Shown in pieces: positions 1,524 through 63,975 of a stretch of DNA of 64,000 bases (within the stretch, counting starts at the first letter, position 1; each line of letters starts with the position of its first letter). The stretch covers positions 15,686,576 through 15,750,575 of the forward strand of contig OZ316896.1 of the NCBI GenBank assembly GCA_973895155.1, read 5' to 3'. Below the pieces are notes generated by a model. It was not told where the DNA came from. It worked only from the letters and a program-made list of their open reading frames with translations, and ran no database searches. This DNA comes from Marsupella aquatica. Taxonomy: Eukaryota; Plantae; Marchantiophyta. A program made the translations under genes and the position numbers.

Positions 1524-3020
1524 AATATAGCCGTTTGCTCAGTAAAGAGGTAGTTTCATGAGAGTCCACGTGAGTTTTGACAGTCTATCTGAGTGGGGAT
1601 CTGAGTGGGGATCTTCTCAAACGTTGTGATCTATAGAAGCTTTCATTTCCAGCCAAATAAAGACCCTAACCGATGTAACGTTAGTGCACACCAAAGGACA
1701 TCCAGATTTCAGGCCAAACCACCCTCTTGGGTAGTAAGCTCGGGTAGCAAGATGGGGGAAGAGAAGGGCCAGGTGTTTAGGAGATTTCGGAGAGAAATAG
1801 TAGCATGGGCCCACGCAGTCTGATGCCAACAGGTACAACCCCCTTGCAGTTCACAAAACTATATGCTTTTCATCTTGGACTTATTGTTAGTTTATCCTTC
1901 ATACAAGTCTTCTGAAAGCTTTGTGCAAAACGAGATATACAATCGTCCTCACCTTTGTTAGTTAGTAACAATTAGGAGTATACTGTTCATGCAAGGAAAT
2001 CAGTCCTCTTATTCCCACAATAAACGCAGCCAATGGGTGTCATTTCCGAATATGATGCTGCTCTGGGATTTGTCTGGACTTCACCTACAAACGTGCTTCC
2101 CAAGATCCACATCAGGCACGATTGTTTCAAAGAATCTGAGATGCAGATCCGGTAACCCTTTCCCTTACCATGAAGCACACTGGGAAGTATACCCTGCATT
2201 TGGTCCCATCTTCAAAGGCGGAAAATGACCTCGAATATGTTCAATCAAATGAGAGATGAAGAGAGGAACACTCCTTCACAGGAGGGCAATTAAGGATAAT
2301 TCTCCACAGTTCTCCGAGTAATTGGCGAATATCTTTCACACCGAGTTGGCATCATGCCATCATTGCCCTACTGTGTGTAAGCACTAACAATTGTAAACTA
2401 CATATCGTCCCTCAAAGATACATGTCACTGTCTCTCCCATCCTACAAATTAGAGCCTCTGTGATGAGGTCTTGCCATTAGATATAATCCCTCCTCGTGGG
2501 ACAGGGACAGGAGCTCACAGTGCAGTCTCTTCTACTGGAAAATAACCTAAGTCAATAAACTAAAGATTGATAGACATGGTAGGAACGGTCCATGTCACTG
2601 CCATCTTCCACCCTTCTTGCTCTCACAACCCTCCAAACACTGTGACTATCATTCATGAGTTTGACCAGCTAGGAAGATAGAACTGCCTATATAGTGCAAC
2701 TGCCACTATCAAACCAGCCCATTCACTTTGGAAAAACCCGGGAATGGTTGAAGGGATTGATCGGAGAAGACCAACGTCGTTGCCAGTTCCACATTTGAGT
2801 TATAATCCTGACTGACTGAAAGCGCCCATCAGAACAAAGGTTTACAGATAAATGTTCTCGAGCACTGAGGTATCAATCCGGCACCCGTTCTTGAACTCAT
2901 CTCCTCCCTTAGCTGTCCATGTTGAGTTTCTCAAGTACATCCCGTCGTGCAGAAAAATGTGATACAACTGGGTAATGATAAGACCCCGCAGGAAGGAATC
3001 ATACTGTCTGGTTTACATGG

Positions 3021-6000
3021 CTACACTACTATCAGAACATACAGGATGACGTTGACGGCTGCCAGGAGGAAGTAGTGTGTAGAAATATGAGGGGCAGAAG
3101 CTGGCATTGCTGTGGGGGCTGGGCTTGGAGCAAGTGATAAGCCTAGAAGTGGAGCCTCTGGTACCACTAGAATTGGTGCCGCCGGTGCAGGTATGCGGGG
3201 TGCATATGTCGTGTTGCCCAGAAGACCACGAACTGTTGGTAGTATAGTATAATTCATCGAATTTGATGTGATCCCATTTCCCAGACACTGGTTACCTGCA
3301 CATGATGACGAGTAGAACCCAAGTGAGACGGCATCATCGTCATAACAAACATACCTGCCTCCAAATTTCACATATAGACCAGTAATTTTGCAGCGGCATT
3401 AGAATCTGACAACACAGTCGAGATAGAGGGACAAACAGCATAGGCGCAGCTATAAACCAACTATCATCGGAGTAGAGTAAACAAATCTGCTTGTTGAAAT
3501 TCTAATACATATACAAGAACTGGCCTGATTTCAGTCAGCATATCCCCAACTGGCTTAAGAGCAAGAGACAAGAAGTCCGAGGAAGGGAGCACTCCAGAAA
3601 GTTACAAATATTAACGAGAAAATTTATAAATTACCTAGAGAGGCAGACTGAATGGGAAATCCAGAGCAACAAAGAGAGTGGGCATACCAAGATAATTTTG
3701 GACAGTCGTTGGAAAATCTGTCACGATCCCATCAATCCCATAGCTCACTAAAGCAAAGAGCTCCAAAGTGGGATCTGACTGAAGGTCAAAGGGAGTTGAG
3801 ACAAACTCGTTCTTCTGGACCTCGACGTAAGTTTTCAAGTTCTGGCTATGTGCCAATGCGATCACATCGGTCGAAATATTGGACGTGAAAAAGTTCGAAT
3901 CAAGTGGTTCCACCAGTCGCACATTCAAATTTACTGAAGACGCGTACTTCTTTATTTCCACAAAATTGTTTGCATTCAAGGAGATTGGGTTCTTGTCGTC
4001 ATATAGGACTTCATACATCAGGGGATATGTCACGTTCAAGTCACGAAGTCTGGCGAGAGCAGCGCTGTCCTCTGACTGCAGAATCACTTTATCCGTACTC
4101 TTATAACCAGCTGCAGAAAGGACACCAACTACCGCATCGACAACAGCCAAATTGTGCGCATCTCTGATGTAAACAGCATTCTGCACACAGCTCGAGACCA
4201 TCACCACAAGGAAATAAACGTATATATTGTAGTAAGTTCGCAAGTGTCGTCGTAACGAGCCTCTTGTCTACTACAGTAGCAACTAGAGCTGTGGAGGATG
4301 ATGAATTTATGATGTCCGCTTATCCGTTTAATGTGACTGCATCAGCTTTTCCAAATTGGCGGCCTTTCGAATCCCTAACAGCCTTTCAGAGTAAGGAAAA
4401 TTTAACTGCATGAGGCTCGTCACTAGTCGCGAGTAACACGACTGATTTGTTCCTTGCTCTTATTACATGCGTTGTGCTCGGATCTGTTCTCTCAAGGTCC
4501 CCAAGTCAGGGGCCAGAACCTGTATTAATTTAGTACATTAAGGGACAAAATGCTGAATTTAATCATTCCGTTCCTCTTATGTTTTAGAATGTGCTCAATG
4601 AAGTCATTTCTTCGTCTTGACAGTATCGACAGGTATCCTTCTCCATTCTCTCGTAGAGAAAAAATTCAGTCTTGCCATTGCTCAAACATAGCACTTTGGA
4701 CAGAGACATACCTGGATGGCAATCAGCGCACCCATGGAGTTGTTTTTTGCTATGCTCAAAAACTGCGCCAAGGTAATAATACCAAATTCACGATCATAAT
4801 GTGGGTCCCTTAGAACCAATACTTCCGGACTGTACATTGTCGCTGCACATAACACAGAGATGAACTTAGTTCTCGTATTGTGCTACATTACGTCGGTATC
4901 CACATGGCTAACATGAGGGGGAAATGCGCGAGCGAGTCTCCAACCATTAGTTCTCGTATTGTGCTACATTACGTCGGTATCCACATGGCTAACATGAGGG
5001 GGAAATGCGCGAGCGAGTCTCCAACCATTCACACGTGTGCGAGAAATTTTCACTGTAGTAACACGGAGAAGCCCATTTAACAAGCTTGAGCTGCACATAC
5101 ATTTCTCAATGAAAATACCTAACAGACACCTTCACGCACACGATGACTACGCTTTCTGTTCACGTCCCACATCCAGAAACCGAATCTACAAAAGCAGCAG
5201 TGTATACGGTGTCTCACCGCGCAAAGTGTTGATTTGGGCCCAGGTGAGATCAAACGTAAAAATGCCTGGTTGGCCCCCATAAATGCCAGGATACGTTCTC
5301 AAATATGGCTGGCTAAGAAGAGGGTACAAAGACACATCGGTGGAATCAATTAGATTGACTGTGGGTCGGCAGAACGGTATGCTATCCGCCGAGATCTGTA
5401 CGACGCAATCAATGTAGTCAACACCCGCATCAATGGCACTGTAGTATGCAGGACTGGTGGCACCAGGGAATTTCCCACTGTTGCCATTGTGGGAGATCAC
5501 TGTCGGCTTCTGGATGATGGCTTCTGCAACATGGCAGTTTGAACCCATCAAATAGATATCAACTTACTTCAACTATAATGTAATGTTTCTCAAGAAAAGT
5601 GTAAAAATTATGACATTTCTGCATCCGATGTAGCTATTAATGTAGAGTTAGCCAAGTGCACCTGCATCGGCCCCGTGTCAATCCCAAATCACCTGGAACA
5701 ATTCTTTCCTAATTTTCCTGCAGTGCCTACTAATCTAAGCTATTCACAAACTATCGGAATGTGATCCGTTTGAAATCACACACTACTGAAACTTACGCTT
5801 GTTTCGAGGTGAACTAACCCGTGAATTCGAGGCATAACAACCTACAGTTCATACACACATTCCACGCGTCAAGACTTGCCATCCGTCAGTTTTTTCCAAT
5901 ATGTCAGATAAGTATACAAGACCCACTTTTCAGTTTTACTCCAACCGCTGCACTTATGCACTAAGTAGACTGTGACTCCATCTTCTCGAAAGCTGAATTT

Positions 6001-9000
6001 AGACCTTCCAAAGATGTAACAACATCAAAGCAGAGTAGACAAATTACTTACTTATGGCTTCTGATGCTGTTATTGGGAAGTCCGTGAAAAAACCATCAAC
6101 TGAGAAATTGTACGTTTCGGTGAAGTACAAAATTTCAGTGATTGGATCGGAAGTGTAGTTGTAACTGTGTGGATACTCGTCATTTGCAAAACCATATGCG
6201 TACACTTCAAGACCAACCTTATGAGCATCTTTCACAAGGGTGCTAGGTGGTTGGAGATACAAGGTGTTTGGATCAACGGACCAGATGTAACTCTTTGGGA
6301 CGAGAATTCCAGATGCTAAAGTTTTGATGTATGTCAAATTCTTTAAGAGCGCTTTATAAGCCTGATTGGTAGACAAATCTGTTTGTTGAGTGTCCAGGAA
6401 TTTGTATATGAGCTTAGTTTGCGGGAGCGGGCCAAGGGCTTGAATTTTTTTGAGTAGGGCGATCTCCGGGACAGAAACATATCCAGGAACAAGTGCTTGG
6501 ATTACGCTCAACAAGAAAAACGTCGCATTCAATTTGCTGTTCGCCTCAATAAATCGCGTATACTGAAAACACAGAAGCAGAGCAAAACGACACTCTTCTT
6601 CGTCATAAATCGTTGTCTTGATTTGCTGATATGAGCTTTCTAACACCTACTGCTTACATCTTGGTTCCCTCGGATCAGATTTCTAGCAAAACTCTTTTCG
6701 TCAACTAACAGATGAGACGGTCCAATGAGGGTGTGAGATCTAAGGAGCCAAAAGAGAATTGCAGCAATAGTAATGCATTTGACTCAACAACAACCTTGTA
6801 ATGACCCCAAACTTGCGCGGAAGGTACTAGAGGTTCAAGATAGAAAGTCAGCCTGAGCTAGGCATTCCCAAGAGAATGTAAGAAAGGAGTAAACATTGAA
6901 TGCATGAATTTAGAGTACAAAATTTATATGCAGCAAAGACTATATTCCTTGGAAAATGCCTTGCAGCCATGGACACACCCAGACTAGAGAAGGAACGTGA
7001 ACGGGTACAATACCTCGCTGTTAAGCCACCAAGTATTGGCTATGGGGGACTGGCTTATGATATTGGACACTTGGCCGGGTGTTAATATTTGATATTCTCC
7101 ATCGAAAGCCGGAGATCTTGCAGTGTTGCTTTGAGTTGCTGGGGTACAAGCACCATCAAGAAGGTAAGAAAGATATCGTAGGCAGAGAAGTGATACGAAC
7201 TTGGTCTGAAAAAAAATCAACTTCCCGACAACCAATGCAATATTGAGAGCCTGATTCCTCCTCGACTAAGAACAGATGGTGCAAAACTGGAGTATCACTA
7301 CTAGAAGCTTATCCACGTTGACCCGGAAATGCTTATCCACGTTGACCTGGAAATGCTATGAAGGGTTATGTGAGAAACCACAGGCATCCAAGGAACAGCC
7401 ACGGAAACGAATTACAGAGTCACTCACCCAACGCCAATAGAGTAAGGTTTTCATACAAAATGTCGATAGCAAAAAATCCAGTTATATTTTTCCCATTAAT
7501 AATACGCGTGCTGTTGAACTGTGGGCCATTTAACCCAATTCGGGTAGAGTTGGACAGGTCAAGGCCTGTCCTGCAAATCCCTGCCCCACTTGCAGCAAGC
7601 TGAGGGTTTAAAGTCGGGGCCATTTGCAAGTCGCAAGAGATTACAATTCCAGGTAAACCGTTGAAGATGGCATCAATGTATGCTGGGTCTGTTTGATCAG
7701 GATATAGTCCAGAATTTCCACCATTGGCAATAACAACTGGAGCAAGCCCTGCATGAGAGAAAGACAAATCATCAGATTCTTCGCATGGTTGGCAAGGAGT
7801 TTAAAATGTAATCACTCGCAAGCATCTACAAAGGATGATGAACCAAGTGACTGGACTGAGCGACAAACAGTATCGACTTTCATGGCTGAAGCAGTATTCC
7901 TCGTAAAATGGAGATCTCTTCTGTCAAAATGAAGTGAAAGTTTTGCCAACACTTCAACGATGTCAACTTAACATGTCAGAATCTCCAGGGAAAACAGCAC
8001 GAGCGGTGTAACAAACTGTCAGAACCAGCGAGTAGTGTCATATCCTGCGCATTCCAGGTCTTAATGCATTGGATCCTTAGTCCTTGATCCCTCAACAGAT
8101 TGCATAACTTTACAGGAAGAATTCCAAATGGAGTTCATCACATGGACATAGGTATGAAAAGACCTTCGTATCCTTAAAAGTCATAGAATCAGAACGGGAC
8201 CGAAGTTTTCTATCCTACTGAACGACAGCTTTCCTACGACCTACTAAAGAAGAGTGCTATCGCGATGGAAGGGCCAGCTCTTTTCTGTGGTATGCAGGGC
8301 ATCTGATTGATTCAATCACATGACAGCCAAAACTCCCATTCTGCAATTACACGATGGAACACCGACAAATTCAAACCATGCTCTACAAAAGACAGGCGGA
8401 AAGGGCCTTAGAAATTAATGACCGATTTGATATGTCCTCCAACAAAACACCGGACAGTACCTTTGTCGTCTCTCTATCTAGCTCAGCGATCTCTAGCAAC
8501 ACTAAGTATGGTCTGCTTTGAATACCAAGTCCTTCATGTTCAAAATCTCTACGGAACTATCCGGCAACAATTTCATCGTCCGCTCAAGGTATTAGCCAAA
8601 GCAGAGTTAAACGGTGTCACAGGCAATTTCATCGTCCGCTCAAGGTATTAGCCAAAGCAGAGTTGAACGGTGTCACAGGCATTTCATCGTCCGCTCAAGG
8701 TATTAGCCAAAGCAGAGTTGACCGGTATCACAGACAATTTCATCGTCCGCTCAAGGTATTAGCCAAAGCAGAGTTGAACGGTGTCACAGGAAATAGATTC
8801 TGTTGCAGGTTGTCAAGTTCGGTGAGCCACGGCCAATCACATTACTTTACAATCCCCGTGATAACTTGACAGTAAAAACTGCATCTGCGTGGACTCAACT
8901 CGAACAAATTAAACTATCTGGAAGACAAGTCCGAAGCATTGGTTTCCTAACGCATTACACGATTGATAGCAGGAGTTACTGGGTCCTCCTATTGGCTTTC

Positions 9001-22708: not shown

Positions 22709-22920
22709 TTAATTACATTGACACTAAAGATCTTCCAAGTTACACTTATACTGCCACCTTTTTTTATTGTATTTACAAATATGCCATTTTTTTGTATATG
22801 GCTACCTTGGTTACGTTGGTGAACTTGCCATCCATATACTTAACCATGGCATATTTGTAAATACAAAAATATTTGTGACAGCATTGTCAATTTAAACATC
22901 TTTAGTGACAAAGTAGTTAA
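22709..22920. repeat. Long imperfect inverted repeat (foldback/MITE-like)
   Basis: Perfect 19-bp arms GTATTTACAAATATGCCAT (22769-22787) and its reverse complement (22846-22864), plus outer arms cactaaagat / atctttagtg. Confidence 0.75.
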
Positions 22921-46671: not shown

Positions 46672-47484
46672 AGACCACAATCAATTGAAGAGACCACACT
46701 GAATTGACGAGCCCGTGGGCAGACTATTCGAAGCAGCGAACACCAAGACCGCGTCCTATTTGGCAACTCGCGAAGCCTCCTTGTGTCCGGGCGACGAATC
46801 CCCTGCAATTCCAGCCTGCTTCCTGCCAATTCACTTCGTGCACTCCGACACAACCTTGCTACTGAAGCAACCGAACCGAACAGAACCAGACCACAGCACA
46901 GCACCAGGAAAGCCAACCACCGTAGGAGGCCACTCCCACCACGGCAGGCGCTTCCGAAACCCGCAAAACAACAGTGCTGCCTGCTGTCCCTAATCCATCC
47001 GCGAAAACTTTCAATTGCCCTTAAATTGAGGTCCTCTCCCACCCGTACAACTGTCTGAAAGCAATCAGTCAATGAACCTAACCACCAACCACCACCACCC
47101 CCGCCACCGCAGAAGTAGCACAGAACGGGAGAGAGTTAGAGAGAGAGAGAGAGAGAGAGTGTTAAAGGCAGAACCCTCGGAGAAAAAATAAATGACGCGA
47201 CGACCACCGCGAGAAGAGGAAGATGGTGAGTATGACTTCCTTCGATTATTCGCTTCCCCTTTCGAGAAAGGATGCGATCCACCGACGATTTCTTCGCGTG
47301 GAGCACGGCCTTGCTGCGTGCGAGGAAGGAATGGGAATTGGGAGCGAATCCAACGGAAGGGAAAGACCGATTACGATAAGGAGAGGAGAGGAGAGAAGAG
47401 AAGAGGGGAGGAGAGACGAGAAGAGTGGAGACGACAACAAGTACTGTACTTTCTGCACACACAAACGAAGACGAAGCTGACGGT

Positions 47485-48150
47485 GACTAGGCTCGGCAAC
47501 ACTACGGTAGGCTCGCACATGCCAAGGCTGACACAGACAAGGCTCCGACACCTAAGGCTCAGGGAAGAGTTGCATGGCGCCCTCACCCTCACAACCCAAA
47601 GAAGTTTTGTACTACTGCAGACCCAAAAGAAGAAGTAAACTAAGACTGGGACTAGGCTTGGCAACTCTATAGTAGGCTTGGACATGCCAAGGCTGACATA
47701 TACAAGGGTGCCACACCTAAGGCTCAGAGAGAGAGGTTCCATGACACTGTCACCCTCCCAACCCAAATCAGTGTTGTACTACTGCATACCCGGAAGAAGA
47801 AGAAAAAGAAGACTAGAACTAGGCTCAACAACACTATGGTAGGCTTGGACATGCCAAGGCTGACATACACAAGGCTCAGAGACCTAAGATTCATAGAATT
47901 GTTCCATGACACCCTCATCCTCACAACCAGAAGAAGTATGTAGTACTGCAAACACAGAAGAAGAAGAAGAAGAAGAAGAAGAAGAATACCCGGACTAGGC
48001 TCGTCAATATGGTAGGCTTGGAGATGCTAAGGTTGAGATGTACATGGCTTTGACAGGGCTCAAGGATTGGGTTCCATGACACCCTCACCTTCACAACCTG
48101 AAAGAAGTGTCGTACTACTAATGCAGACACCGAAGAAGACAAAGAAGAAA
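47485..48150. repeat. Diverged tandem array, ~165-176-bp unit x4, each ending in an (AAG)n tract
   Basis: actaggct..ggtaggctt..atgccaaggctga..accctcaccctcacaacc..gtactactgca..gaagaag starts at 47485, 47650, 47817 and 47993. Confidence 0.85.
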
Positions 48151-50847
48151 AAGAAAAGATTCTCTCTCTCACTCTTCACATGTACTTTTTCATGAACTAT
48201 GGATCCTTTAGGAGTTCTCCATCGTGATGTAATGTGAGATTGAGTGCTCTCAAGTTCTGCATTGTTGTCTAGTCTGCAACCAACAGTTTCTTACAAGTGA
48301 TATCGGAGATTCGTATTTTGTGACAGAGCATGGTGGAGTCAGACCCAATGACAATTGTTGTAGAGGTAGTGTGTTCTATGTATTTCCCAAAAGACCCGAT
48401 GACAACTGTTGTAGAGGTAGTGTGTTTTATGTATTTCCCAAAAGCACGCCCCAAAGGGCCTAGTTAAACATTGAATCCATCTTTGTCATCAGTAGAGTCC
48501 TGAAGATGTAGCACTGGATATTTATGTGACAGGCCATTCCAATCTTGACCTTTGGCAGATTTGAGGTTAATGTGTACTCAAATGACCTTGTGTCACAGTT
48601 TGGACATAATTTAGTCAACAATTGAAATTTGGATGCAGGTGTCCAAAGCTCTCAACATGTGGCTTAGGAGCATGTCCAGTGGTCAAGTTGTAGCTATATC
48701 AACCAATCAACATAGCAGGTTCAGTGGGGTCTCAAAACTAGTCTTTTGGTCCTTTTTCTTGAAAAAACTCACAAACACTAATCCCGACTCACAAACAAAT
48801 TTTAAATATTTTTGTCATTGATAAATCATAGACTATGGCTTTTAGCAAGTTCTGGTAATATCATGACTCTGCAGTGCTAGCATGACTACTTGTGCATATT
48901 AACAAGAAGATCTTCTTGCCCAGAGAGCCATGACTTTGTGGTAACTCGATCACTTGAGTAGAGACTGATAGGTCTTGGGTTCAACTATTGTGGCTGACTC
49001 TTCCCTTTTTGTGGGGTTCCACAAATTTCCCCTTAAATTTTCTTAATTTTTTTAAAACAAAATAACAAGAATATGTCCTTGTACCCATACTCCCAATGCC
49101 GGCATCTTGACTTATAGACATATTTTAAAAATTGTATGTTGTTGATAAATCATAGACTGTGGCTTTACCCTAAGAAGTTATCACGTACAATAAACTTCAA
49201 TCCTGAATTATAGTGGAGATTTCCTGAAATTGTGGAGGTGACTAGCATAGTAGAGGAGGGCATTGGCTGGCAAGTGAAAAATGAGTGAATGTTGTGGACA
49301 CTTCTCTCTTTAAGAGTGGTAGTGATGGACTTCAGCCCTGTATTTTCATTGAAGGATATGCATCATAATATCCTCCCTAGCCTAGCCATACTAATTACCC
49401 TGATGTATATTTTTATTGGTGTAGATCAGGATCATAATTTCTCCTAAGCATTGTTTGTCCAATATTGACTCATTGAGATTCACTCTGTAATCCATTTCTC
49501 TTCAAGGGTGATGGCCTGTAGCACCCTTGAGTTGGCCACCCTTGGAGTTACAACCCCATAATCCCCGCCAGAGGATGTGGTAGCCCATATATACAGACTT
49601 TTGTGATGTGTTCATTTGTGTTTTTTATTGCATAATTAATTTTCCATATAACCTCCCTTTTTTTCCTTTTTTAAGGGAGCACGGCCCAGGAAACTTTATT
49701 CAGGAATATCGGGGCAAAAAGAGTACATCTGCCTAGAAGAGGAGGTAGAGAATCGGACTCACCCAGAAAACAATTAATGGGGGCTAAGAGAGCGAGCACA
49801 CCCATAGAAAATAAGGGGGGGACCTCCCAACCGGACTGCCAGGGAGGGGCAAGTGGAAGGTGGCAAGGAGGGCCCCCAAATGGATAGAAGGAAAAAACAA
49901 AAATTGCATGAACTAGAGCCAACAAACAAGTCCGGTATCCGCCAGAAGTCATGTTGAGCAATGCCAATCAACTTCTCCACTGGTTGACCACCCAAAATCA
50001 ATCATCAGCCAATGTTCATGAACCACCTTCCTTGTTGTGTCTTATCTTTGCCTTGATCTCCAATATAATTGTTTGTATGGTCAGGGCTCAACATCTGCAG
50101 GATCAGACTTGAGAACCATCAATCAGCCGCCATCCTGTATTAGAGCCTGGGAGTAAGAGAAAATCATCTCACTCCTAGCCATCTGATCTCAACACTGCAT
50201 CCTCTCGCCAATAGACATTCTGTTGAGCATGGTTCCACTGATGACTGGAATGCCATGAGATCCGTGGAATATAATTGTTTCAATCCCCAGACTTGTCGCC
50301 CTAGATACCAGTAAGAATGGAAAGCATGGACATTGGACAAGTATATGATTAGGCTGTTGGGGGGCCATGCAGAGGGTGTGTCAAGCCTGTGGAGAAGGTA
50401 AAGGCTAGCCATCCAATAGAGTATCTAGGCAAATGACAGATCTGAGAGTGATGCCAAAAGAACAAGATAGAGGGATGATTATTCCCCCAAAGTCCATAAT
50501 CCTCAAAAAACTATATATATTTATGTATCCCATGAGACCAAGAGAGTGTCCATGGGAACCAAATCTACTTTATCATCGGCAATGACTATAGTTATCACCA
50601 AAAATATTTGATAGCTAAGAATGTATCAAACCGAATTGCCATTGTGGTGAAAATCTTCAGATCGAGTACATAAATCATCCATAGCAAAGGAATAAGACGA
50701 TTAGAAAATGCCTGAAGGCCCGTGAGGAGGATTGAACAAACATGAACCCTAGAAATCCACGAACAACAGTCTGGAGTCAAAATCCGGGTCCAAGGAAGTA
50801 TCCAATACCAAACAAACTCTTCCCCATAGGGAGGGCACACCAAACCA

Positions 50848-51017
50848 AATCCTTGATCATGCGACATATAACTATCACTATAAATCATAATTGTAACTCC
50901 TACTGTAGTTACTAGGATTAGCATAATAGAAGTCAAAGAATCGACCAAATAATCTATTTATAATATAATATTCTTATTAGTAATCCACGACCAAAAAAAT
51001 TGATGAATTGGACTCCC
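50848..51017 (-). pseudogene. ndhF: Nuclear plastid DNA insertion (NUPT): fragment of ndhF
   Basis: Translates [55 protein letters not shown], matching the NdhF signature WSW..YLIDPLTSIM..YSDxYMSHDQG. It has one in-frame stop and unrelated flanks. Confidence 0.88.
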
Positions 51018-53261: not shown

Positions 53262-53580
53262 ACTTATGTGCATGCCAGGTAAGCAACTATGTTAACCACA
53301 AGATGCATATGCAAATTGTTTTATTTGTATGCAATAGTCATTTCATGTGCATGCAAGATGAGCATATATGCAAATTGTTTTATTTGCATGTATTAGTTTT
53401 TTTATGTGCATGCAAGGTAAGCAAATATGCAAGCCACAAGATGCATGCAATAATTGTTTTAGATGTATGAAAATTGTTTTATTTGCATGTATTAGTTGTT
53501 TTATGCGCATACAAGGTAAGCAAATATGCAAGCCACAAGGTGCATGCATGCACAAATTGTTTTAGGTGCATGCATTAGTT
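53262..53580. repeat. Degenerate array built from tgcatgca / aattgttttatttg units
   Basis: Repeated gtgcatgcaaggtaagcaaatatgcaagccacaag and atgcaaattgttttatttgcatgtattagtt. Confidence 0.8.
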
Positions 53581-53664
53581 GTTCACTTGCTTGTATTATT
53601 TGTTTTGATTGCAATAGTATTAGCACACATTCCTACGTTGGATGTGTGTCACTTGGCTTTCATC

Positions 53665-53738
53665 CAAGTATTTGGGCGTAATTCATGCCCTCTTGGATTC
53701 AGTATAAATAAAGTGATGAGGGACACTCTCTCCTCATT
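53665..53738 (+). promoter_or_regulatory. TATA-box block upstream of the decayed cassette
   Basis: catgccctcttgga..TATAAATAAAGTGAtGAGG..cactctctcctcatt (TATA at 53703-53710); homologous to 63906-63975 on the - strand. Confidence 0.6.
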
Positions 53739-53960
53739 CCCACATTTTAATAATTTTTGCGTCAAAGAGATCCTCTTTTATTCTTTCATCTTTTCTTTCT
53801 ATTATTTGCTTTATGTACATAGTAGTGAGACATCCTTTGGCCCGGATAGCTGAGGAATGAGTGGTAGACTTATAGATGAGATCTTAGAGAATAAGGTCTC
53901 TTTGGAAACATAGGGTGGGACATCATTTGGCCGGGATAACAAAAGAATAAGAGAATCATT

Positions 53961-54177
53961 ATGAATCCAAGAGAGAGAGATATCCCTAATTTTCTCATTC
54001 GTAACCCATTTTTGGTTAGAGTCCATCTTTTAGACAAGTCATCCATGAGGCAACATTTAATCTATCACTTTGGAGCTCAAATTTTTAACTGCTGTTATCA
54101 GTTCTAATGAGCCAATAGTATACCCAGTAGTGTCTTACCGAGAGGAGTGAGAGTGCATTATCTTTATCTTCTATTGA
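53961..54177 (+). pseudogene. Decayed copy of cassette ORF A
   Basis: ATG at 53961, a +1 frameshift in the T-run at ~54082-54086, and TGA at 54148 where ORF A has Trp. Ends IIFIFY* at the same position as ITIFILY*. Confidence 0.75.
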
Positions 54178-54181
54178 AGTC

Positions 54182-54390
54182 ATGGATCTAAATAAGAGTC
54201 TAGATGACATTCATATTTCATTTTCTCTTGGAGATATTAGGATCACATGTCATAGAAATATTAGTTTTTGAGAGGTGTTAATCCGCAAGTATGGTGAAGT
54301 AAGATTTAATAATATACTAGATTTACTTGAATTTTTCTTAATACCCACTACCCTTCTTACAAGAGTTAGATCATTTTGGTTTTAATGTAA
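54182..54390 (+). pseudogene. Decayed copy of cassette ORF B
   Basis: ATG lies 4 nt after the upstream stop. TGA at 54269 replaces the Arg of ORF B, and a frameshift near the 3' end is probable. Confidence 0.75.
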
Positions 54391-57400: not shown

Positions 57401-58750
57401 TAATTGAAAACCTTTCGTAACTTGGCCTCGAGCGAAAATTGTGGCATAAGGGGCTAAAAGTTACGGCCCTAACCCCGCTCTGGTCCAGGCAACCCCTTCT
57501 TGGTCCATCGATGCGCGGCGACTCTAATCGAGTCTAAATCGGCCATAACTTTTGGCCCCAAGGTTCGTTGGCCAAAAAATATGCGGCCCCATGATTGGGC
57601 TCATGTGGGGCTTCTTAGGCCCCTATGGTGATCCATTGGAAAAATAGTTCATTTTTCCGTGATCGGCAATGGGCCCAAACTACAAGTATGCGGCTTGAGT
57701 CGGCCATAACTTTTGGCCCCTGGGTCCGTTGGCCGAGAAATATGCAGCCCCATGATTGGGCTCATGTGGGGCTTCTTGGGTCTATATGGTGATTCGTTGG
57801 AAAAATAGTTCATTTTTCCATGATCGGCAACGGGCCCAAACTACAAGCATGCAGCTTGAGTCGATCATAACTTTTGGCCCTTGGGTCCGTTGGCCGAGAA
57901 ATATGCGGTCCCATGATCGGGCTCATGTGGGGCTTCTTGGGCCCCTATGGTGATCCGTTGGAAAAATAGTTCATTTTTCCATGATCGGAAACAGACCCAA
58001 ATTACAAGCATGCAGCTTGAGTCGGTCATAACTTTTGGCCCCTGGGTCCGTTGGCCGAGAAATATGTGGCCCCATGATCGGGCTCATGTGGGGCTTCTCG
58101 GGCCCCTATGGTGATCCGTCAGAAAAATAGTTCATATTTCCGTGATCGGCAATGGGCCCAATAAAGTTAATTGGAGCGCGCTTTTCTCAAGTCTTGTCCT
58201 TGCTCTTACTAGTATCCTCTTTGTTAGTCGCATCCCTAATGGCCATGATGGTAGAAAATCTAAGAGGGGCTCAACGCTGGAGTTAGGCAACGCCGGAGCA
58301 ACTACGAGTGGGTGAAAGTTGTATTCGCGACTCTACTTCAGCATCACCTCTTGGCTTCAGCTTTCTCCTTCAGTAGCGTCCTTCAACTCAGTAGTGCAAT
58401 CAACAATCTCAATTCAACAGCATACGTACATTGACTCTGAATGTAACAGAGGCATTGATAGCTCCAAGGGAGCTGAAATTTCCCTATCTCGAAAGCTTTT
58501 TGAGCACCACAGATTTTCTCCTGATAACAAGCTTCAATTCTTTATCCCTCCCTTCCTTACATTCAACAAATTCATGTGTTTTCCCATCTTTCACGAGTCA
58601 ACCCTTCTTGTCGTTATGGAAAATTTCTCTTCCCCTTCAATCGCATCAGCTAATCTCCTTGAATTGCTATTTGAAATTGTTGTCTTTCTTTCACAGGTTA
58701 CGTAATTACCTCTTGTATTTTTTGTCCTTATTAGAAGGGTTCATGTGATG
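54430..58750. mobile_element. Probable degraded transposable-element sequence (unclassified)
   Basis: No recognisable coding capacity, internal repeats (ttcagcagcatagct, tctcaatgtcagttgc) and an embedded 161-bp array. No diagnostic termini or domains were found. Confidence 0.3.
57540..58160. repeat. GC-rich satellite-like array, 161-bp unit x~3.9
   Basis: The unit start cggccataacttttggccc (with variants) lies at 57540, 57701, 57862 and 58023, exactly 161 bp apart. Confidence 0.95.
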
Positions 58751-61700
58751 ATACCTGACCTTCCCTGTTAACTCTTCTAACACTTCTTTCTTGTACTCAA
58801 AATTTGTAACTCACTTTTACGGTATTCAATTTCAATATACTAGTAAGGAAACCCCCTATTCATAAATTACTCACTCCATGCTCCAATCTTCGTTTAAGCT
58901 ACAATTTGATGATTGAGTTTTTTACACATAAATCTACATAATTTGTGAGTTCTCAGGTTCATATCTATCATGAGACTTTTCTATAATTTTTCTAAATGAA
59001 CTATTTCTTAATTGTGTTGTAGGTACTTAAGCTATAGTTCACCCCAAAATTTTTGTAACCTATTTTAATCTCATTAAATCTGTCTCGACACTCACAACCC
59101 AGTTGTTTCATCTTTCTACTACCTAACATGCATATTTTCTCACTCTATAGTTATGTTTAATTTTACTTGTGATTACTTCTAACTATAATTAATTTATTTT
59201 TAACTAATTATAATTAAAAATAATTATTCTAGTTAACCACTACTACCTAATTCGACATACACCCTTTAACTTTGATTTTCTATTTAACATATTTTAACTT
59301 TAATTTTCTATTTAACATACTTTAACTTTGATTTTCTATTTAAAAGATTCACCTTTTTTTGTTTGCTATCAAAAAATTATTCAAATTTTATATAGCTAGT
59401 TATATGAGTATAATGCCCCTCAAAACTTGGATTGCCTCATTTTGGGGGACATTATATGTCACAATGCCCTATAACATTATCCTATTTAAGAAGCTAATTG
59501 AATTATTCTTCAATATTAAATGACTCAAATCTTGCAGTGAAGGTTAAACTTCCACCAGCCATACAAAAGAGGAGAAAGTGTCAAAGACTTCTTCCTTTTT
59601 TACTTTTATTTCATTCTTCTTTTCTCGGGTGTTATATTGCTCCAAAAATTTAGGAAAATATACTATGTATGATGTCACAAAAGATTTTGTCATTGCGAGT
59701 GATGATATTGTTAGTGGTGGTTTAAACCGCTACTAGCTAGGATAAAAATGGTATGAAATCTTGTTTCTAACTTTAGCGCATTCACAACACCTTTTTAGAG
59801 CCGATTGTAATTTGTACACATTTTTGGCGCAAGCATGTAAAACCCATGGAATCATAATACTAAAATTAAGTAAATATGAATGAAAAGAAAAAATATAATC
59901 TAAAAAACTAACACAAAAAATCTCCACTAACACAACATGTTCGAACAACAAACAAAGATCTTAATCCGGGATCCAATCATGGAACAATATCGATGATAAT
60001 ATGGATTAAAAAATACAACATAACCTAGAAACTAAAAGTGAAAATCAACATGTTCTTTGTGTGCTAGCTCCCAAGTGGACTGCACTGTTATTGAAAGGGT
60101 GTCATCTCCACAAAGCTAGCAATGTATGCTAGATAATTTGTAATACACACCTCTGTCTACGAGAAACTATTTGATTGTATGCCGATGCAACAAACATATG
60201 AAAAGCCTCAACTATTGCGAGAGAAAAAACCTAGACAAAGTTGAGGCTCTCAAAATTAGACTCATATATTGTCGAGCAAAAATCTGAGAACCTAGCAATT
60301 ATATTTGCATGTCTCATACATTAGAATTTTTTTATTTATGGTGGACCAATAGGCCACGACCAGCGGTATATGTCATCCCGATAGGAGATCAACTATGCTG
60401 GTCTCATTTGATGCTCAACGCTACAACATAGCCCAATTCAATATGTGCAATTAGTATATACCTAGAAAACTATATAATGATGCTAATTGAAGAAATATTT
60501 ATTTTTTCTTACATAGAAGTCGCAAAATTTTACGGGAAAGGGCCCAAAAATGCAACAAAGACGACCAGAAAGAGAAAGCCAGAGCCTGAAAAAACACTAC
60601 AAGACCGCTAAAGAACATAATACTTCTATTATAATTGTGACGGGTCATTGAAGAAAGATTAATTGAATCATTTATCATAATTTATATACTTTAGATGGTT
60701 AATTATTTTAATTATGATATGAACATTGTGTTCAGATAATTATATATACAGACAATAGACTAAGTATTATATTTTGAAAGGATCATAGAATAATTACATA
60801 GGAAAAATGAACATCAAATAGATAACACAAAACATTCAAAAGAAGAGGTCGGGCCACCTAAGACAATATAGATAAAGTTGAGAAAAAATCATTGACAACT
60901 TACAATACAAATTGACAAGGACTACTTGTTGTTCAATGCATTTTAGTTTAGAACAAAAGTTAGTCGTACACAAACTCTCATTTGGGTAAAAAAAATGGGT
61001 CAAATTTTAGTCATGAAAAAATTTGATTACATTAAATTTTTCCTTAAATTCAGGGTTTTAAGATGACTCAGTTGCACTTTAGGTCATTATTCTTGGTGGG
61101 ACACTTTTAACGCCAAAAGTGAATTACTGAAGCAAAATAATAGATATGAGAATGAAAAAAAAATATAAAATGATTTGCCAGAAGATATTTATTTGGCTTG
61201 AAAGAGTCCGACGTTACAATTCTTTCCATGTTTTAAAATATTTCATATTACTAGAAAAAATTATTGTTACTAGGAAAAATAATAATATAAAAATATTTCC
61301 TAAAAAGTCTTATTTTAAAAAAAAAAAAATTATAACATTTTTTTGCTAGTTATGAGTTCTCAGTTGGCTTGAAAGAACAAAATGTTGAAAAAAAAATAAA
61401 TAACAAAAACCAAACAACAGGTCCATATTGTGTGAACAACACACTAACATTAATAAAAAGATGTATATATATATATAAAGAAGGACCCAAGGGAACAAAA
61501 TCGACAATCATCAAAATGAAAAAACAAAAAAATATATAAAAACCAAGAATAACAATTGAGATAATAAGAATACATAAATATTTGGTTTAATAAGAATAAA
61601 ATAGCAAAAATATATACTTATAAAAATATATAATATATATATTTTATAATTTAAAATAATGTGTTAAAACTAAATTATATTTGATCATTTTGGGAAATCT

Positions 61701-63251
61701 TTTTAATTTACTCTATGATGAGGTGGATAAATGGGTTCAAATTATATTTTATATCACTAAATTTAGTTATTTTAATAGACACATTGTCTTCAATTCATAT
61801 TACTATAATTTTTTATTGTCATTTATTAAATCAAAATTTTTTCATCTTGCGATACTCCAAATTATTAGTTTAATACGTATTATAAAATTTATCGATATCA
61901 ATTCAAATCAAATAACATACATTAAGATGTCAGATATACTAAAGAGGAATGGATGGTTAATAATTTTCTTATTTCATGTCGTTCTTGATTTAAAAATCTA
62001 AAATATAATCTATGAACTTTGAGACAAACTCATTCACAATTTTAGATATCTTTCTATATGATCTTATTAACTAGACTGAGTTTTAGAATAAACTTTATGT
62101 TTAATATAAGATAAAAATAGAGTTAAGTCTTGATTTGGTGAACATTCAGGTTCTTAACCTTAGTAATATCAACAACTATGTCATTGAAAATATTGAAATG
62201 AGAGATATTAAAGAATTCTCATGATCACATGATTCTTATCTTATGATAAAAATCAAACATATCTTATACCATAAATTGACAATCTAGCAATGTTACGTTA
62301 AACTAGCATGTCTTCACCCTAAACTTTGACACATGAAATAGTCAAAACTCTTAAATTTCAATGTGTTTTAATAAAATTAGATCCATAAAAAGGATGCACA
62401 ATATCAATTATGAGTCCATCGAAATTGTAAATTTATATCTATGATTAGTGATAAGATCGTCATCTTCAAATCAAAGATCTCAACTAATGGTTATTTATTG
62501 GTGGCATAACTCTCCAAGAAATGAATCTTAAATTTGTTATGAAAATCAATGATATAATTATCCGATTCAATCTCAAATGTTGTCGACTCGTGTTGGGTCT
62601 ACATTTAATTTTTTTTTCTTTCGCGTTGTTATTGGCTAACTAAATTGATTTCCACACTTTCCGATTGCCCTTTTAAAAATATTATGATTTACTAATATCA
62701 AATGTTGATTGGTAAACATCGTATAATCTTTAAAAAGATATTGACATTTTGTGATACAAATTTATAATTTAGTTATATTTGTATAATGCAACGTCTGATT
62801 GCGAACAAAAATACTCGATCACAAGCACCAATATTCCTAAATCTAAAAACAATGGTACTTCAATATATACTCGTATTTTTAATTTTGAAATTTGCAATAC
62901 ATGTAAGATGTTATGGGACATAAATTAGTATGGATATAATTTGTTTTGGGGCTAAAATTTATCATGATGTTCTCTTAATATATGAAAATTTATTTATTTT
63001 AATATGTTATAGATTATATAAATAGTTTAGTAGTTAGATTATTATATTTAGATTTTAATAACTATTTTAGCTATAGTATACGAACTACAGTAGTTCCACC
63101 AACTACAATAATTTTAGTGACAGTTTCTTCACACTAGGTCTCGAATGAACGGTTTTATTCACACTAGGCCTCGAATCGGCCTATCTTCTTTCCACATAAC
63201 CCAAGTCAAGTCATAGATTGCAATTTCCAATGAATCCTACAATTAAATAAG

Positions 63252-63497
63252 TCAATTATAGAAAACAAAGACTATGATCTTAAAATTTACCATAGATGAT
63301 ATAATCACAGGCTCTGGCATCCTAAGCATAACATTGTATCTTTCATCTCCATACTTTCTAACTAAAATATCTCTATAATTAATCTTTTTACGACATATCA
63401 CTCTAATGTCAATAGATGAAGGAAAATTAGACACATTATTAAGAAGCCTATTCAAATCTAACTCCGATACATTTACGGGTTGTCTATTAAAATCCAT
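63252..63497 (-). CDS. Unknown 81-aa protein (cassette ORF B), paralog of ORF A
   Basis: Its ATG directly follows the TAG of ORF A. A decayed homolog at 54182-54390 aligns without gaps at about 19/50 identities (DIRVIC..ILVRKYGDERYN vs DIRITC..VLIRKYGEVRFN). Confidence 0.7.
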   Translation of the reverse strand: MDFNRQPVNVSELDLNRLLNNVSNFPSSIDIRVICRKKINYRDILVRKYGDERYNVMLRMPEPVIISSMVNFKIIVFVFYN

Positions 63498-63731
63498 CTA
63501 ATATAAAATAAAAATAGTTATATTCCATTCATTTCCATAAATAACATTCGGATATACAAATAGTGCGTTGCTATTCATAACTGTTTTCATTAACTCAAAC
63601 CCAAAATGATAAAGAAGATGCATTCTCATGGTATACTTGCTAAGACAATGAATTCTAATTAAGAAAGAATTGACAAATGGCACAGCAGGTGGAGGATAAA
63701 CTCTAGATACTCTATTTATCATATTATTCAT
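63498..63731 (-). CDS. Unknown 77-aa protein (cassette ORF A)
   Basis: Intact ATG-to-TAG ORF. A colinear decayed homolog at 53961-54177 shares 15/24 identities in the core (NSFLIRIHCLSKYTMRMHLLYHFG vs NPFLVRVHLLDKSSMRQHLIYHFG). Confidence 0.7.
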   Translation of the reverse strand: MNNMINRVSRVYPPPAVPFVNSFLIRIHCLSKYTMRMHLLYHFGFELMKTVMNSNALFVYPNVIYGNEWNITIFILY

Positions 63732-63905
63732 TACAAACACACTAAATTGATCTCAAGACTAATAAATATAAATCATAAAATAGTTCTAAGGCCAACAATC
63801 AAGTTAGTACCCAAGTATGGATGTAAATAATAAACAAGACATGTCCACAAGAGGGGAAGAGTTCCTTATAGTATTGCGAGTCCAATATGATAGATCAAAC
63901 AATAC

Positions 63906-63975
63906 AAATGAGAAGAGTGTGCTCCTCTTCACTTTATTTATAGTGCCCCTTTATGTTTTCCAAGAGGACATGGAT
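63906..63975 (-). promoter_or_regulatory. TATA-box block upstream of the intact cassette
   Basis: The - strand reads catgtcctcttgga..cTATAAATAAAGTGAaGAGGagcacactcttctcatt; TATA at 63942-63935, about 200 nt before the ORF A ATG. Confidence 0.6.

Follow-up and report, generated by a model that had tools for sequence, protein, structure and literature searches.

The pair of small open reading frames (ORFs) near the end of the 64,000-nucleotide stretch of Marsupella aquatica DNA analysed here, which we call the window, belongs to a multi-copy repeat, of which it forms the coding cassette, and is not a host gene. We read it as one decaying copy of a multi-copy, likely transposable cassette of two and probably three genes, in which the downstream protein (B) is predicted to bind the plant corepressor TOPLESS (TPL), the upstream protein (A) is a likely partner without an EAR motif, and the two genes would be served by alternative splice acceptors; to this reading as a whole we give a probability of about 0.45. 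That A and B are real proteins borne by a repeat is far more secure, and we regard it as highly probable. The features of the cassette are given below, with reference to two metagenome contigs (L001 and L002) and to contigs from four public runs.

63932..63942, minus strand: TATA box TATAAATAAAG of the cassette; identical 11-mer in L001, L002 and the second window copy.
63864..63869, minus strand: putative 5' splice donor site in the leader; GT in L001, L002 and most run contigs, missing from the window copy.
63732..63863, minus strand: U-rich leader, putatively an intron of the 5' UTR with its acceptor shortly upstream of A; proposed from T content and AGs.
63498..63731, minus strand: ORF A, 77 aa, EAR-less paralogue; dN/dS 0.06-0.11, p<1e-10.
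63495..63520, minus strand: U-rich tract and TAG-ATG junction (A stop, B start), putative 3' splice acceptor; conserved in L001 and twice in L002.
63252..63497, minus strand: ORF B, 81 aa; dN/dS 0.41-0.70.
63146..63197, minus strand: probable third ORF (C), start only; continues in L001, which the loose ends of run contigs match.
63068..63135, plus strand: inverted, decayed piece resembling the 42-bp tandem repeats above the L001/L002 promoter, by blastn and nhmmer.

The initial annotation had described two abutting, intronless ORFs about 200 nt below a TATA box. The coordinates agree, with a zero-gap TAG-ATG (ORFs 63731-63498 and 63497-63252), and the distance from the upstream TATAAATAAAG to the ATG of ORF A measures 211 nt. 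The word 'intronless' holds for the ORFs themselves, which are uninterrupted, but not for the leader, which probably contains an intron. The abutment is weak evidence by itself, because 12 of 100 shuffled windows also give a pair of ORFs of at least 66 codons each and no more than 4 nt apart. We nevertheless take the junction to be real because it recurs in L001 and L002. The initial annotation does not mention the second copy, the repeat character or the decay of the window copy, the probable third ORF, the leader donor or the DLNxxP (EAR) motif, which are treated below.

A check of copy number by tblastn, as had been proposed, matched a second, diverged copy of the cassette in the window, which occupies about 53.6-54.4 kb of the plus strand. 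It has the same TATA 11-mer, and both its A and its B are broken.

53264..53613, plus strand: tandem repeats with 59- and 99-bp periods above the second copy, unlike the 42-bp unit in sequence.
53616..53742, plus strand: promoter region of the second copy, TATA at 53703-53713.
53961..54177, plus strand: decayed A-type ORF with a frameshift near 54080 and one in-frame stop; tblastn E 9e-8.
54182..54385, plus strand: decayed B-type ORF, beginning MDLN, with one in-frame stop; tblastn E 4e-9, family HMM E 1e-14.

The junction of this copy reads TGA-AGTC-ATG, so that the B-type ATG lies 4 nt past the A-type stop and in a different frame. Both metagenome contigs have the complete order of 42-bp tandem repeats, TATA, leader, A, TAG-ATG and B. 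The layout of TATA, A and B is thus kept in four copies, and upstream tandem repeats are found in the three for which upstream sequence is available. In the four public runs, 136, 356, 215 and 56 contigs align to an 891-base stretch at 80-100% identity; these contig counts are our evidence for multiple copies, and summed depth is not taken as copy number. We conclude that the cassette is a multi-copy repeat because of the second window copy, L001 and L002, and the hundreds of run contigs. One of the metagenome copies also has a local peculiarity: at L002:747-782, the junction carries an exact-phase duplication of 18 nt, which has given rise to a second TAG-ATG and to a mini-ORF of five codons that separates A from B.

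Below B, the start of a probable third ORF is seen both in the window, where it is truncated near 63146, and in L001, where a 74-codon frame with three in-frame TGA codons follows B. It has no homologue among proteins of 40-130 aa and no meaningful match in Pfam, NCBIfam or PHROGs. An open 33-codon frame at the end of the contig (L001:1143-1241), with no Pfam hit, is a possible fourth ORF. Beyond the truncation in the window, the inverted piece at 63068..63135 (plus strand; blastn E 5e-4, nhmmer E 0.01) may be a neighbouring fragment, or else belong to a deleted element as its sub-terminal repeat.

Purifying selection separates the two ORFs. In pairwise comparisons of the window copy, L001 and L002, dN/dS is 0.11, 0.11 and 0.06 for A (p<1e-10 each), and 0.43, 0.41 (p about 0.006) and 0.70 (p 0.19) for B; A is under strong purifying selection and B under weaker. 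Measured against the value near 1 that the initial annotation had named as the point to check across copies, A lies well below and B lower too, but one of the three comparisons for B (0.70) is not significantly below neutrality. The five alternative frames contain stops, and none has an equal selection signal for A. The window copy itself behaves differently from the family: 20 of its 25 ORF-internal differences from the run majority change the amino acid, which is the neutral share, and because its coding differences show the share expected without selection we take it to be decaying neutrally. Among the 40 differences shown (of 92), 33 are A/T in the window and G/C in the majority. The family, then, is selected, and the window copy is decaying. 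A CHH-heavy pattern of decay was considered as a lineage marker and was dropped once normalised (CG 3/15, CHG 4/17, CHH 26/229).

How are A and B related to each other? The initial annotation had aligned them without gaps over 29 residues at 10 identities and called them paralogues. This alignment is reproduced as the best ungapped one and is equalled in 14 of 3000 shuffles, and a pairwise BLASTP of A against B finds no match. The question is settled by comparing profiles with a deep B family: in HHalign the A profile matches the B family profile with probability 95.4 and E 1.7e-8 over 59 columns, and a column-shuffle control reaches this score in 0 of 240 trials. As judged from these profiles, A and B are true paralogues.

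The B family was collected by searching a profile from four B proteins against 1.84 billion representatives with no length limit. Of 36 hits, 35 are true members of 46-169 aa; the remaining one, P0043, was a false DUF11 hit and was removed. The family forms at least 35 clusters, and the B-type proteins have diverged into more than 30 clusters that share less than 50% identity. In an unrooted tree of 45 rows and 68 columns, the 8 A-type rows make up a single branch with support 100/100. One protein, P0040, is a natural A-B fusion. Two others, P0017 and P0053, are tandem two-domain members without DLN, present on 7 and 4 contigs, the longest of 8.4 kb, and it is possible that they mimic a dimer in a single chain.

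That the family had not been recognised is borne out by the database searches: A, B and the family have no meaningful match in Pfam, NCBIfam or PHROGs, and none in the PDB by sequence. Nor is there a relative in IMG/VR viral contigs or prokaryotic genome contigs, or a description of the family in the literature searched, which includes few subscription journals. The top match of a feature search is an unnamed 83-aa cluster, mostly eukaryotic and commonest in Streptophyta. AlphaFold models of A and B both have strand/helix/hairpin layouts, at low confidence (pLDDT 56.5 and 59.3) and with disagreement over the first strand, and when these low-confidence models are compared by fold, neither PDB nor BFVD yields a match at E 0.001. 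The best VIA Z scores, 6.1 for A (MinE, rmsd 3.1, 60 aligned) and 2.6 for B (a region of Argonaute), are within the range of common arrangements.

The functional lead comes from a short motif in B. DLNxxP is the plant EAR motif, which binds the TPL corepressor. Among the B-type representatives, 24 of 35 have DLNxxP, 2 have DLNxP, 3 have DLN alone and 6 (including the two-domain P0017) have none; DLN is found in 0 of 12 A-type proteins. In a shuffle control DLNxxP arose in 57 of 70,000 cases. Each of D, L and N occurs in 41-42 of the 43 aligned rows, and the linker behind the motif is freely variable. The enrichment is not merely one of ascertainment, because with the motif columns removed 28 of the 35 proteins are still found at the inclusion score, 17 of them with DLNxxP, and because L001 and L002, whose B proteins carry DLNQLP and DLNSTP, were both found through A. 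The family thus carries the DLNxxP consensus of EAR proteins, and the window's decayed B no longer has it intact: it has two degenerate versions, DFNRQP and DLNRLL, and most run contigs have a proline at residue 19. Together with P0001 and P0015, the window sequence at 63497-63440 marks a sub-family with a duplicated N-terminal motif, two DLN-type motifs in tandem. Such motifs are common in plant proteomes, with 2112 non-transposon rice proteins carrying DLN according to the excerpt of PMC6479872, so a DLN motif alone proves no binding. Considering the motif's near fixation, we think it likely, as a prediction, that B binds TOPLESS through DLNxxP.

We now turn to how two proteins could be made from one promoter. 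The favoured arrangement has a short 5' exon and two alternative acceptors, one a little upstream of A and the other the AG within A's own stop codon; splicing to one or the other would yield separate A and B messages. A GTGAGC donor stands at TATA+69 in L001 and L002, and the variant row at 63869 is present in all four runs; the decayed second copy has no clear donor at the corresponding place. The leader has 45-46% T vs 38-41% in the ORFs, with high-scoring AGs 5-45 nt above A's ATG. On an ad hoc score, the junction ranks tied first of 39, tied second of 44 and first of 39 among AGs, and by this same score an equally good AG lies within A in all copies. The U-richness at the junction is partly due to the hydrophobic last codons of A. 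We put the chances that A's stop doubles as a splice acceptor for B at roughly even.

Splicing has to be weighed against a truly polycistronic cassette, in which B is made by termination and reinitiation at TAG-ATG on a shared mRNA. The distance from stop to start is 0-4 nt in all four copies, and L002 preserves the spacing despite its 18-nt duplication, both of which speak for reinitiation. Reinitiation after long ORFs with a close stop and start is described for caliciviruses, influenza B, CaMV and the retrotransposon SART1, and in the same excerpt of PMC10275272 the known cases depend on a special RNA element or a transactivator. The cassette resembles caliciviruses, CaMV and SART1 in the conserved closeness of its stop and start, which are a few bases apart, and differs from them in that it has no conserved TURBS-like motif and its junction also resembles a splice acceptor (PMC10275272, excerpt). 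A TGGGA within 100 nt of the stop is found in only 1 of the 4 copies. TURBS is a motif complementary to 18S RNA upstream of the stop (UGGGA). Reinitiation would also leave unexplained the conserved donor and the AG that stands directly or 2 nt before B's ATG, and we consider it a rather unlikely source of B, with alternative acceptors favoured over it. Leaky scanning to B is unlikely because the three near-intact copies have 12-15 ATGs above it. Read-through, which had been suggested from the continuous frame, is not generally required because the second copy changes frame and L002 has two stops at the junction; the fusion P0040 does exist.

The setting of the cassette bears on what kind of repeat carries it. 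The window is plant nuclear DNA, with GDPD and RING genes that are split by introns and an ndhF fragment of plastid type, and its last 17 kb is repeat-rich and CHG-depleted (o/e 0.36-0.53 vs 1.0-1.1 in the gene-rich part). The GDPD-family gene (3000-7800, minus strand) has several exons and a hydrophobic C-terminal tail; the RING gene (43.9-46.3 kb, minus strand), which we take to be LOG2-like, has a tandem array of about 165 bp immediately upstream (47436-48159); and the fragment of ndhF/complex I chain 5 lies in repeat DNA at 50598-50957 (minus strand; PF00662, E 2e-11). Other repeats in the window are a MITE-like imperfect palindrome of 212 bp, 71% self-complementary (22709-22920), a GC-rich 161-bp tandem array with units about 90% identical (57539-58161), and a 4.4-kb AT-rich, CHG-depleted block with 24-31% GC in a window of 44% (58700-63100), which is probably an old decayed element.

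Copies of the cassette are dispersed, diverged and decaying, as those of transposable elements are, and we infer with good confidence that the repeat is a mobile element. The initial annotation's placing of the pair in a mobile-element-like setting with an accessory role is supported in so far as the repeat is multi-copy and diverged and A is selected. Searches for the rest of an element cover limited sequence, in that the cassette runs off the window. There is no Pfam hit to a transposase or gag/pol in 9 reading frames of three flanking stretches, and no LTR pair, TIR or other terminus is seen up to the window's end; self-comparison of the window gives no long direct repeat pair, and the L001 and L002 loci are only 1.1-1.2 kb. 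The sequence compared contains no convincing long inverted repeat, the flanking stretches scanned show no features of a Replitron (HUH Rep gene, short direct terminal repeats), and Rfam has 0 hits in 48-64 kb. Inward promoters of the Mutator-like kind were rejected: an inverted promoter-like unit near 54.95-55.02 kb scores 36.5, below the maximum of 49 reached by random control pieces.

One alternative is an accessory unit of an LTR retrotransposon, of the Grande or Retand type, with a promoter of its own, whose DLNxxP would only repress the element's LTR in a form of copy-number control and would not subvert the host. The accessory gene of Grande reportedly has its own promoter, and tandem repeats stand above the promoter in the three copies with upstream DNA. 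In Retand elements, the region from pol to the 3' LTR often holds antisense ORFs as well as tandem arrays (PMC11963269, excerpt). Like the additional ORFs of Grande, RIRE2 and Retand (in Retand, TRP28), the cassette consists of conserved extra ORFs, present in most copies, beside tandem arrays (excerpts of PMC7264820 and PMC11963269); unlike them, it strings together several paralogous ORFs that are much smaller, and it has no TRP28 domain. The described additional ORFs are much longer, the study having counted those of at least 600 bp (PMC11963269, excerpt). Neither TRP28 nor any other Pfam domain is matched and the flanks scanned contain no gag/pol; no Transposase_28 hit is found among 37 proteins at E 0.5, or in A or B, where we assume that the model is in the library. 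We judge this origin rather unlikely.

In the reading that we prefer, B would bind host TPL through DLNxxP, with A as the conserved EAR-less partner. The shared domain, of about 55 residues in a beta-alpha-alpha-beta-beta order and with a K-x3-R pattern and an invariant Lys in each paralogue, would dimerise and perhaps bind nucleic acid; the median pI, only about 8, lends little support to DNA binding. B would then either tether TPL to a target, e.g. the element's own upstream repeats, or titrate TPL as a decoy, and in both cases tune repression of the element. A putative A-B dimer, for which the fusion P0040 and the tandem two-domain P0017 and P0053 speak, has in our estimate slightly less than an even chance. 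For an effector/antidote pair, which had also been suggested, we find nothing in support. A bolder and doubtful extension is that these are undescribed plant mobile elements with a virus-like accessory unit: one promoter, a ladder of acceptors in which one gene's stop codon would be the next gene's splice site, and several paralogous micro-proteins, one of them an EAR mimic that hijacks TOPLESS. The mimic would in this case be a transposon-encoded corepressor adaptor or a decoy in an arms race.

Three other origins are much less probable. The ORFs might be exons or fragments of a larger known transposon protein with DLN incidental, for instance a DUF8040-type region, which is presumably part of Harbinger-like proteins. 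The feature search does give 0.91 matches to clusters of DUF8040 (42% of members) and DUF8418, but it also warns that the DUF8040 assignment is probably wrong, with agreement in 5 of 10; the 35 relatives are all short although the family search set no length limit, and start and stop codons are conserved; we hold this to be improbable. More improbable still is that the cassette is what an undescribed plant virus left in the genome, with an effector that binds TOPLESS among the virus's small genes: a single strong promoter followed by small, compact ORFs in tandem and free of introns, with a probable third, would suit it, but no relative is found in IMG/VR, PHROGs or BFVD folds, and hundreds of diverged contigs per run better suit a transposon. 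The least probable, a domesticated and non-mobile host family of small EAR repressors, has in its favour that EAR motifs are typical of host repressors and that A is under purifying selection, and against it that both window copies are decaying, truncated or broken and lie in the CHG-depleted repeat stretch.

As in plant ERF/C2H2 repressors and the fungal EAR mimic Jsi1, the DLNxxP of B lies beyond the folded domain, in a terminal segment of variable sequence, and Jsi1 illustrates that a non-host protein can interfere with TPL through DLNxxP (PMC8126959). Unlike these, B resides on a nuclear repeat, has about 70 aa and no known DNA-binding domain, is similar in motif only, and is paired with an EAR-less paralogue, its TPL binding being predicted. 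VANC of the Arabidopsis VANDAL transposons is, as B would be, a transposon-borne accessory protein with family-specific non-coding tandem repeats; the repeats differ between related families, and VANC targets them and removes methylation (PMC5735166, excerpt). In contrast to VANC, the B family carries a repressor-binding motif, and any binding of DNA by it would be hypothetical (PMC5735166, excerpt). The excerpts of PMC10288648, PMC7466625 and PMC9956375 hold nothing specific to the cassette.

An unnamed, repeat-borne family of micro-proteins is real, and its predicted link to TOPLESS is a strong functional lead. Both the family and the putative overlap of stop codon and acceptor would escape plant annotations because the ORFs fall below the usual cut-offs. 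Pathogen effectors are known to mimic the EAR motif, and to our knowledge few transposon-encoded proteins act on host chromatin control; no case of transposon-encoded EAR mimicry was found in the literature searched. If B does bind TOPLESS, a transposon would have a new means of steering the silencing of host genes, and a fast-diversifying family of about 70 residues with a nearly fixed DLNxxP offers a small, testable handle on the repression of mobile DNA.
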